Origin: Escherichia coli
Lineage (GTDB): Bacteria > Pseudomonadota > Gammaproteobacteria > Enterobacterales > Enterobacteriaceae
NCBI RefSeq assembly: GCF_041248615.1
Contig: NZ_CP158426.1
DNA: 64,000 nt
Direction: 5' to 3' (one strand)
Below, in pieces: positions 49,519 through 49,850 of the stretch. Position 1 is the first letter of the stretch, and every line of letters starts with the position of its first letter. The notes beneath the pieces were generated by a model, which did no database searches, had not been told where the DNA came from, and worked only from the letters and a program-made list of their open reading frames with translations. Made by a program: the position numbers and the translations under genes.

Positions 49519-49532
49519 TCTATTGCACAACG

Positions 49533-49558
49533 AGGAAGCTAAAAGGCTTCCTTTGTTG
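49533..49558 (+). terminator. bcr rho-independent terminator
   Basis: aggaagc-taaaag-gcttcct followed by ttgttg. Confidence 0.7.
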
Positions 49559-49850
49559 ATGCATGTCAACCACAAATCCATCATTCCCCCGATATATGTT
49601 TATTTTATGTAAAATCAATTTATGTAAAAAGTCACATCATTGTAGTTAAAAAGGTTGAGTTAGATCGCAGAAACGGGTACATATAGCCCCGCAAACGTGA
49701 CCACGCCCGCAGATATTATTTAAATCAGAGCCATAGAGGCCACGCTGGCGAGGCATCAATCTTTACGATCTGTATAAAGACGGATTGTTGATGATGTGTT
49801 AAAATTGATGTAAACAAATTGTGAAGTAAATGTGCTTCCGGGGAAAATAA

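Follow-up and report, generated by a model that had tools for sequence, protein, structure and literature searches.

A conserved non-coding block and tandem promoters in the spacer between bcr and yejG of Escherichia coli

The spacer between bcr and yejG is best explained, with a probability that we put at roughly 60%, as a compound transcription-control region for yejG with multiple inputs, rather than as a single long leader or a pad for nucleoid proteins. According to this explanation, the bcr terminator would be followed, from 5′ to 3′, by an FNR-type palindrome and by as many as three sigma-70 promoters in tandem (P3, P2 and P1). The AT-rich run that first drew attention to the spacer is the upstream half of a near-invariant block of 93 bp (block B), which carries 11-bp-phased TGTTTA/TGTAAA repeats (a motif type recognized by winged-helix response regulators), a CRP-type TCACA half-site, an A-tract and the core of P2. 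Sequence-specific regulators would bind block B and the phased repeats over P1 and, once bound, would choose which promoters fire according to oxygen, acid and carbon signals. Promoter choice would set whether yejG mRNA carries a long AU-rich, Hfq-binding leader, detected as the RNA “Och4,” and may matter for the fate of that mRNA.

The multi-promoter region and the candidate RNA have mostly been published already; new in this analysis is the conserved 93-bp block B, which has no assigned regulator. Tentatively, we suggest that block B and the FNR-type palindrome are the operator array of one or more regulators new to yejG, which would select among the three promoters and decide whether the Hfq-binding leader is made. 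The same DNA would then be promoter and operator for P2 and, in transcripts from P3, would be read into the 5′ leader RNA. Selection on it would be stronger than on any of the coding segments nearby in the locus, and its inputs would be oxygen, acid and carbon. For a conserved, uncharacterized gene such as yejG, knowing how and when it is expressed is often the quickest route to what it does.

Composition and genomic setting of the spacer

In the window (the whole stretch of 64 kb analyzed here), the bcr-yejG spacer occupies positions 49519–49850. It is non-coding, 332 bp long and has a GC content of 0.383, compared with 0.516 for the window. The preliminary description called it unusually long and AT-rich. 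The figures are as described, but the spacer ranks third in length among the 31 intergenic regions of a near-identical annotated genome (strain M217), and its GC content falls within the range seen in the other long regulatory spacers (0.34–0.40). The intergenic-region table was computed on the M217 sequence, whose coordinates are offset by ~245–279 bp from those of the window upstream of ~39.5 kb. The AT-rich run quoted earlier, TTTATTTTATGTAAAATCAATTTATGTAAAAAG, is positioned at 49599–49631. There are two AT-rich blocks in the spacer, with GC contents of 0.19 (49596–49653) and 0.30 (49785–49850), and the ~130 bp that separate them have GC contents of 0.47–0.51. Among long regulatory spacers of E. 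coli this composition is ordinary, and the property of the spacer that exceeds chance is its conservation, not its composition.

The gap of ~330 bp was originally placed after the bcr terminator. The length holds, but the terminator hairpin lies within the interval, not before it. This hairpin spans 49532–49553 and the terminator folds at −13.1 kcal/mol; its T run is interrupted, and a simple terminator scan therefore passed over it. Because the alignment does not bring the hairpins into register, terminators were folded species by species. GC-rich hairpins with a T run occur at the same place in other species, with differing sequence (53 distinct 5′ arms in 79 species).

The gene order and a spacer of ~333 bp are retained across Enterobacteriaceae, so yejG is not an orphan in the taxonomic sense. 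The locus belongs to the vertically inherited core genome and is not of foreign origin. The GTG start assigned to yejG is well founded: an in-frame TAA lies directly upstream, a Shine-Dalgarno sequence (GGGGA) is found at 49840–49844, and GTG is retained in most of 78 species. Its description as a gene of unknown function agrees with the assignment of YejG to an uncharacterized Pfam family. A recent ribosome-profiling study reported yejG as one of four genes induced by acid stress only, and induction at the level of yejG mRNA is specific to acid. The features of the region are listed in Table 1.

Table 1. Features of the bcr-yejG region, in window coordinates
Feature	Position	Strand	Details
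bcr stop codon	49516–49518		TGA
bcr intrinsic terminator	49532–49558	+	hairpin GAGGAAGCT-AAAA-GGCTTCCTT, then T-tract TTTGTTG
FNR-type (CRP/FNR family) palindrome, predicted	49556–49569	.	TTGATgcatGTCAA; center 49562.5
Promoter P3, putative	49556–49590	+	−35 TTGATG (49556–49561), 17-bp spacer, −10 CATCAT (49579–49584), start ~49590
“Och4” RNA (“5′UTR-yejG”)	49590–49826	+	reported as 241 nt; long leader isoform or candidate sRNA
Block B	49596–49688	.	93 bp, highly conserved, non-coding; AT-rich run and P2 core
Direct repeat, candidate	49597–49613	+	TGTTTA-TTTTA-TGTAAA, 11-bp spacing; resembles OmpR/PhoB-family (PhoP-/ArcA-like) sites
CRP-like site, candidate	49621–49636	.	TATGTaaaaagTCACA; perfect right half, weak left half
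Promoter P2	49648–49693	+	A-tract AAAAAGG (49648–49654), −35 TTGAGT (49655–49660), 17-bp spacer
P2 −10 region	49678–49687	+	TACATATAGC; start ~49692–49693
Variable spacer (body of P2 and P3 leaders)	49694–49784	+	low identity, no RNAalifold pairs
Promoter P1	49777–49813	+	weak −35 AAGACG (49777–49782), extended −10 TGtTAAAAT (49797–49805), start ~49812–49813
P1 short 5′ UTR	49813–49850	+	~38 nt; AAATTGTGAAGT, Shine-Dalgarno GGGGA, A-rich stretch before GTG
yejG coding sequence	49851–50195	+	114 aa, GTG start, Pfam PF13989
LacI-family (Cra/GalR-like) operator, predicted	49929–49944	.	GCGGAATCGGTTCAAC; inside yejG

The conserved block and the promoters

Across 73 Enterobacteriaceae species, block B has a mean identity of 0.918, the highest of any 90-bp stretch in the 5.3-kb locus. 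The runner-up (0.875) lies inside bcr, and block B exceeds every coding segment. Identity to the E. coli sequence is 97–99% in Citrobacter and Salmonella, 91–96% in named Enterobacter species and 76–81% in Klebsiella. The block is unannotated and single-copy, present in 5425 of 5426 E. coli genomes, and a distant-mode BLAST search of the 5,426 genomes found no paralogues. Within it, stretches of 20, 15 and 49 bp are invariant, with 5–7 variable bp between them, and this patchiness looks site-like. The AT-rich run is near-invariant from genus to genus, which favors recognition of a specific sequence over recognition of base composition. Conservation continues through the −35, spacer and −10 of P2 and ends at the P2 start.

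The promoter arrangement is not the simplest one, i.e., a single yejG promoter adjacent to the start with no other transcripts, which the preliminary description had set against its own proposals. Two sigma-70 promoters 120 bp apart were validated by PET ChIP-seq of sigma-70 and primer extension (PMC3798280), and Och4 is a further RNA from the spacer. The published primer-extension starts, 2,276,419 for P2 and 2,276,299 for P1 in U00096.2, were transferred to the window through the K-12 alignment. For this conversion we used a deduced v2-to-v3 offset of 1976, and positions are accurate to ±1 nt. The primers map to 49719–49739 (P2) and 49858–49878 (P1). Near P2, the dPeak-predicted sigma-70 event at 2,276,432 corresponds to ~49680 and the RpoH-SELEX peak at 2,276,452 to ~49660; both RpoD and RpoH genomic SELEX match the spacer.

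P2 reads TTGAGT-17-TACATA. It is without the −7 T, its −10 lies 10 nt before the mapped start, and judged by its bases this −10 appears to be a poor sigma-70 match. The P2 core is nevertheless near-invariant across genera, including the 17-bp spacer, and invariance of the entire spacer exceeds the need of a plain promoter. At P1, TGT repeats phased by 11–12 bp (at 49786, 49797, 49809, 49820 and 49831) overlap the promoter, and TGTGTTAA is invariant in 31 species. The short P1 5′ UTR, including AAATTGTGAAGT, shows conservation of ~0.75–0.9 across genera, and a MazF-associated 5′ end has been published 35 nt upstream of yejG.

We infer the third promoter, P3, from a computational pick within a SELEX fragment combined with an RNA-seq 5′ end. 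For the bcr-yejG spacer, TTGATG-17-TATCAT is the promoter given in the RpoD genomic-SELEX paper, and the K-12 alignment puts this sequence at 49556–49584, where the −10 is CATCAT in the window and TATCAT in K-12. The 5′ end of the cloned Och4 (49590) is 6 nt past this −10. The P3 −10 is conserved in Escherichia, Salmonella and Citrobacter only, and neither of the two dPeak sigma-70 events in the spacer is at P3. A generic promoter scan at its threshold picked up none of P1, P2 and P3. Transcripts from the P3, P2 and P1 starts would give yejG leaders of ~261, 158 and 38 nt, respectively.

The distance between the −10 elements of P2 and P1 is 116–122 bp in most species, 99 in Kluyvera and 65–66 in the E. 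asburiae group. Strict helical phasing between block B and the P1-side block C was rejected, as the distances are evenly spread over 116–122 bp. A minus-strand promoter or sRNA, considered by eye, was also rejected: its TACAAT loses the −7 T in many species and has no usable −35.

Candidate regulator sites

Motifs were assigned by matching to the general consensuses of the regulator families, and the regulators named here (FNR, CRP and a PhoP-/ArcA-/OmpR-like factor) are putative. The FNR-type palindrome has one mismatch to TTGAT-N4-ATCAA in E. coli (9 of 10 positions). Among 79 species, the consensus is exact in 43 and has at most one mismatch in 68. The half-sites are constant and the N4 is free, with at least 8 different N4 sequences, and the distance from the site to block B is 51–52 bp in 62 of the 68 species. 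Together, block B and this near-perfect site at fixed spacing would offer a precise handle on how and when yejG is expressed. The center of the palindrome is at −27.5 from P3, where it overlaps the −35, and at −130.5 from P2. Its position over the P3 −35 would be compatible with repression. No mapped start lies 41.5 or 61.5 from the site, and the P3 and P2 offsets are non-canonical as activating positions.

The direct repeat at the upstream end of block B has two mismatches to TGTTTA-N5-TGTTTA and matches the PhoP box at 10 of 12 positions; a third TGTAAA follows at 49623–49628. Allowing up to two mismatches, TGTTTA-N5-TGTTTA occurs four times in the spacer (at 49597, 49760 and 49786 on the plus strand and at 49800 on the minus strand) and 14 times in the whole 64 kb. 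Shuffles of spacer composition gave a mean of 0.09 matches and 0 of 2000 reached the observed four. TGTTT and ATGTAAA are invariant in all 31 representative species. The ArcA 15-mer, at up to three mismatches, has no match in the spacer. At the same threshold it does match upstream of mqo.

The CRP-like site has two mismatches to TGTGA-N6-TCACA, a pattern found 18 times in the window against 27 expected and therefore not above chance; at this threshold the CRP 16-mer has one match in block B. Within the site, TGTAAAAAGTCACAT is near-invariant. yejG is among the CRP genomic-SELEX targets, and CRP is a plausible occupant of the site. Patterns of sigma-54, sigma-32, MerR-type regulators, TyrR, CpxR, NagC, Fur, PurR and IHF were considered by eye and set aside for wrong spacing or because they fell on variable columns.

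The control regions of cydAB, focA-pfl, ndh and yfiD/grcA have tandem sigma-70 promoters with FNR, ArcA, CRP and IHF sites, and are regulated by oxygen and stress. The bcr-yejG spacer resembles such regions in that an AT-rich spacer of 300–400 bp contains several promoters in tandem, only a few hundred bp apart at most, and in the predicted combination of a CRP/FNR-family palindrome with phased TGT-type direct repeats over promoter elements. It differs in that the FNR-type site is off the canonical −41.5/−61.5 of a mapped start, and in that conservation of the core block is far above the usual level and exceeds that of the flanking coding sequence. In the dPeak paper, cydA serves to illustrate oxygen-regulated multi-promoter regions (PMC3798280). 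A second parallel lies in the same window: the mepS (spr)-lpxT spacer (58110–58520) is 411 bp long with a GC content of 0.39, and two close sigma-70 promoters were validated there in the same study (PMC3798280).

Leader RNA and alternative explanations

The preliminary description proposed that the interval may hold an unannotated small RNA or a leader. An RNA has indeed been published, but we found it to be without conserved structure, Rfam family or 3′ terminator. Och4 belongs to a set of 10 novel sRNAs (Och1–Och10) identified by RNA-seq (Raghavan et al., 2011, as described in papers citing it), and the RNA from 49590–49826 was cloned under this name by Bak et al. (2015). The Och4 sequence in the supplement of that study aligns at this interval with 228 of 232 aligned bases identical. 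It is on the same strand as yejG and upstream of the ORF, and a published co-immunoprecipitation reported an Hfq-enriched interval named “5′UTR-yejG” that covers it.

It is conceivable but unlikely that Och4 is a trans-acting Hfq-binding sRNA, made from P3 and ending before the yejG ribosome-binding site, with block B as its functional (seed) part. Its detection as a discrete RNA of ~241 nt (Raghavan et al., 2011, according to citing papers), its Hfq enrichment, a 5′ end that fits a promoter, and the AU-rich, highly conserved 5′ 100 nt all agree with this possibility. However, bona fide Hfq sRNAs typically have a terminator hairpin and U-tail, and the Och4 3′ end has neither: no hairpin with a U run was found around 49826, and a terminator scan of both strands of 49300–50400 reported no terminator-like site. 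The middle 90 nt of Och4 are unconserved. Folding z-scores against shuffles were −1.39 for Och4, 0.13 for the P2 leader and 0.32 for the 5′ 103 nt, and the covariation check proposed earlier, run as RNAalifold on 31 species, gave no consensus structure (0 pairs in the P2 leader and three pairs at −0.1 kcal/mol in block B). An Rfam search of both strands at permissive thresholds (E ≤ 10) returned two chance-level matches only, to a human lncRNA model and a CRISPR repeat model, and Och4 is absent from Rfam and from the RefSeq annotation. Overexpression of Och4 left biofilm and motility unchanged, and it has no known target or phenotype, in contrast to Och5 of the same screen. Moreover, Kluyvera, Klebsiella, Enterobacter and Kosakonia lack the P3 −10, yet their block B is still 76–96% identical, and a conservation boundary at the P2 start agrees with an element in the DNA and not with one in the RNA. 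These results suggest regarding Och4 as an isoform of the leader rather than as an independent sRNA.

The second alternative, which we consider distinctly unlikely, takes up the earlier proposal of nucleoid-protein binding. H-NS, StpA, Fis or IHF would settle on the AT-rich DNA and, from there, silence or shape transcription from the yejG promoters. The GC content of 0.19 over 49596–49653, with its A-tracts, would suit such proteins, and yejG expression is reported to fall in a ydgT mutant. On the other hand, the published RpoD-SELEX tables flag spacers with H-NS SELEX sites, and neighboring entries are flagged but bcr-yejG is not. A published passage on genes derepressed in hns or stpA mutants makes no mention of yejG. 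The core, vertically inherited status of the locus also counts against this proposal, and the AT-rich run is kept base for base across genera, an identity that readers of composition or curvature do not require. The one IHF-like match has a mismatch and falls within a variable 7-bp segment.

A cis-acting RNA switch (riboswitch, attenuator, thermosensor or leader peptide) controlling yejG translation or read-through would suit the length of the P2 and P3 leaders (158–261 nt), the Hfq enrichment on the yejG 5′ UTR and the conservation of the short UTR adjoining the Shine-Dalgarno sequence, but it is very unlikely and largely refuted because there is no conserved structure or ORF: besides the Rfam, folding and terminator results above, conservation within the spacer is lowest in the leader body (49694–49784; identity to E. 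coli ~50–65% in Citrobacter and Salmonella and ~14–46% beyond), and the small ORFs that might encode the leader peptide suggested earlier are broken by in-frame stops in many species (of 77 species, 39 have an intact 17-aa ORF and 3 an intact 28-aa ORF, and a minus-strand ORF is likewise interrupted).

A further candidate site lies downstream of the spacer, inside yejG. A GalR-type site predicted at 2278144–2278159 in NC_000913.3 maps to the LacI-family operator motif in Table 1. A Cra ChIP-exo site has been published as “intragenic yejG,” with yejG also listed under “Cra repression,” and this site probably corresponds to the operator motif.

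Composition and promoters of the bcr-yejG spacer

The non-coding interval at 49519-49850, described preliminarily as an unusually long AT-rich leader ahead of yejG, coincides exactly with the spacer between bcr and yejG on E. coli chromosomal DNA that also carries rsuA (+). Its size and composition were described correctly (332 bp, GC 0.383; window GC 0.516), but it is only moderately unusual. In the corresponding 64-kb stretch of the annotated near-identical strain M217 (NZ_AP019189.1) it ranks third in length among 31 intergenic regions, after rcsD-ompC (738 bp) and mepS-lpxT (411 bp), and its GC is within the 0.34-0.40 seen in other long spacers. 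Two AT-rich blocks (GC 0.19 at 49596-49653 and GC 0.30 at 49785-49850) flank DNA of normal composition; the AT run quoted originally is 49599-49631. The spacer is 99% identical to that of K-12 MG1655 (4 SNPs). Complete E. coli genomes carry it in single copy in 5425 of 5426 cases, and no feature is annotated between bcr and yejG. Downstream, yejF is convergent with yejG, the gene ends lying 3 bp apart (50195-50199), and RNA-seq data predict the pair to be an "excludon" in which transcription overlaps (PMC12288877).

Relative to M217, the window is collinear downstream of ~39.5 kb and shifted by 244-279 bp upstream (about 1-39500). The offset changes near ompC (~17-18.5 kb) and narP-yejO (~38.5-39.5 kb), indicating indels between the two strains. 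The window's own mepS(spr)-lpxT spacer (58110-58520; 411 bp, GC 0.39) exceeds the flagged one in length, and two closely spaced sigma-70 promoters of spr were validated in the same dPeak study as those of yejG (PMC3798280).

In that sigma-70 paired-end ChIP-seq study, yejG is the showcase of two closely spaced promoters, with primer extension on aerobic RNA placing the P1 start at 2,276,299 and the P2 start at 2,276,419 in U00096.2 coordinates (PMC3798280). The published primers fall at 49858-78 (P1) and 49719-39 (P2) of the window. Converting the starts via NC_000913.3 with a deduced offset of 1976 (uncertainty ±1 nt) gives ~49813 for P1 and ~49693 for P2. This offset, which we take to be the sum of the IS1 (+776), ylbE (+1) and IS5 (+1199) insertions between genome versions, turns both starts into purines, as the study's authors preferred.

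RpoD genomic SELEX gives a "constitutive" promoter, TTGATG-17-TATCAT, for the spacer (PMC3946193), and an RpoH SELEX peak maps to ~49660. As the 5′ end of Och4, a published RNA at this locus, lies 6 nt past the SELEX-predicted -10, we infer a third promoter, P3 (start ~49590). Its -10 is found only in Escherichia, Salmonella and Citrobacter. One of the four SNPs relative to K-12, at 49579, alters this -10, so a weaker P3 is expected in the window strain. A MazF-associated 5′ end reported 35 nt before yejG (49814-49816) coincides with an ACA just past the P1 start, and may be nothing more than the 5′ end generated by P1. With P1 and P2 both mapped by primer extension and the Och4 RNA reported, the situation named in advance as counting against the preliminary interpretation, a lone yejG promoter and no further transcripts, does not hold.

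Features of the bcr-yejG region (window coordinates)
Feature	Position	Strand	Remarks
bcr	48328-49518	+	
FNR-type palindrome TTGATgcatGTCAA (E. coli form)	49556-49569		unannotated; directly after bcr terminator T-tract
P3 -10 CATCAT (TATCAT in K-12)	49579-84		SELEX-predicted
P2 -35 TTGAGT	49655-60		followed by 17-bp spacer
P2 -10 region TACATATAGC	49678-87		
P1 extended -10 TGtTAAAAT	49797-805		textbook form
yejG	49851-50195	+	GTG start

Conservation of the spacer across species

The flagged spacer is a real finding that published work essentially explains; what is new here is its comparative conservation. YejG homologues were identified in 80 species, each represented by a single genome, with Bcr upstream in nearly all and spacer length preserved (median 333 bp, n=78). 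Conservation along the spacer is sharply uneven. The bcr terminator keeps its structure but not its sequence (53 distinct 5′ arms). A 93-bp non-coding block that spans the AT run and the P2 core (Block B, 49596-49688) shows 97-99% identity between E. coli and Citrobacter/Salmonella, in a comparison where the first 45 nt of yejG reach just ~80-89%. Its identity to E. coli falls to 91-96% in named Enterobacter species and to 76-81% in Klebsiella. In a 5.3-kb full-locus alignment of 73 species, Block B is the most conserved 90-bp stretch (0.918); the best stretch of coding sequence reaches 0.875, and rsuA, bcr and yejG taken whole score 0.79-0.81.

Among the core genera the P2 spacer shows no variation over its whole length. 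Block B terminates at the P2 start, the following ~90 bp are near-random between genera, and conservation resumes over P1, the short UTR and the Shine-Dalgarno sequence. In the Enterobacter asburiae group (loci L065, L067, L068, L069) the variable P2-P1 segment is ~50 bp shorter with both conserved blocks kept, and the -10 to -10 distance is 65-66 bp versus 116-122 bp. Kluyvera has a variable leader ~20 bp shorter. There (L028, L029, L033, L036, L037, L040, L041; locus position 2501) the yejG GTG is aligned to GTA, which is no start codon, followed by ATG, so the yejG start has shifted one codon further downstream.

The Och4 RNA and alternatives to a promoter region

The preliminary suggestion of a small RNA or leader had already been anticipated in print. 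An Hfq-enriched interval, "5′UTR-yejG" (Bilusic et al., 2014), overlaps one of ten novel sRNAs described by Raghavan, Groisman and Ochman (2011). They were cloned as Och1-Och10 by Bak et al. (2015), whose supplementary Och4 sequence aligns to 49590-49826; overexpressed Och4 had no effect on biofilm or motility (Bak et al., 2015). Features of a structured or independent RNA were not found. An Rfam search returned nothing meaningful, folding z-scores are ordinary (Och4 -1.39, P2 leader 0.13, first 103 nt 0.32), RNAalifold on 31 species gave 0 pairs in the P2 leader and practically none in the conserved block, and no terminator-like element lies near the reported Och4 3′ end. Och4 is best read as a long-leader isoform of the yejG mRNA, or a fragment thereof. 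A free-standing sRNA is a weakly supported possibility, favored by the Hfq enrichment of the reported RNA; the missing 3′ terminator and structure, and a P3 -10 confined to three genera, argue against it.

Nucleoid-protein binding, proposed from the length and AT-richness of the interval, finds no counterpart in the RpoD genomic SELEX tables, which mark no H-NS site in the spacer (PMC3946193), and silencing by such proteins is unlikely. The null Rfam result, ordinary folds, and lack of pairs and terminator argue against a riboswitch or attenuator, and a leader peptide fails because the candidate small ORFs (plus-strand 17-aa and 28-aa, and minus-strand) are all interrupted in many species.

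Candidate regulatory sites

The conservation boundary at a transcription start, the site-like patchiness, a palindrome with constant half-sites around a variable N4, and the absence of RNA structure or coding signal point to DNA-level constraint from protein binding. We consider it reasonably probable (about 0.6) that the spacer is a compound, multi-input promoter region, in which the identities of the regulators are putative throughout.

The FNR-type palindrome matches TTGAT-N4-ATCAA exactly in 43 of 79 species and with ≤1 mismatch in 68 of 79; E. coli carries a minority G allele, the consensus being matched exactly in the majority of Enterobacteriaceae. Between species the N4 differs but the half-sites do not, and the next conserved anchor lies 51-52 bp away in 62 of 68 species. 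The center of the site lies at -27.5 relative to P3 and -130.5 relative to P2. Together, this site and the conserved block provide concrete targets for studying yejG regulation.

Block B consists of three invariant segments (ATGTTTAyTTTATGTAAAAT, TGTAAAAAGTCACAT and TAGTTAAAAAGGTTGAGTTAGATCGCAGAAACGGGTACATATAGCC) with short variable stretches between them. The first holds TGTTTA-N5-TGTAAA, a direct repeat phased at 11 bp like those recognized by OmpR/PhoB-family regulators, and a candidate site judged by its motif. With ≤2 mismatches, TGTTTA-N5-TGTTTA has 14 matches in the whole 64 kb, and four of them fall within the spacer (49597, 49760, 49786, 49800); shuffles keeping the spacer's own dinucleotide composition averaged 0.09 matches, and 0 of 2000 reached four. 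TGT recurs at 49786, 49797, 49809, 49820 and 49831, overlapping the P1 -35, -10 and start. A PhoP box is matched at 10 of 12 positions, and an A-tract (49648-54) occupies the position expected of an UP element.

A TCACA half-site with a weak partner (49621-36) is not significant by itself; it is a possible CRP site, consistent with the report of yejG as a CRP SELEX target. For Cra, yejG has a ChIP-exo site described as intragenic and is placed under "Cra repression" in a second study. Within yejG, at 49929-49944 and ~115-130 nt past the P1 start, there is a LacI-family (Cra/GalR-like) operator motif, GCGGAATCGGTTCAAC, which probably corresponds to that ChIP-exo site. yejG is also one of four genes with acid-only induction.

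No ArcA 15-mer with ≤3 mismatches occurs in the spacer, though sites upstream of mqo were found in the same window. The best ArcA matches in the window (2-3 mismatches) are upstream of mqo and in the yeiQ-yeiP spacer (22940-22968, 61860-61874). The rcsD-ompC spacer contains an OmpR-type direct repeat with a single mismatch (16275-16291).
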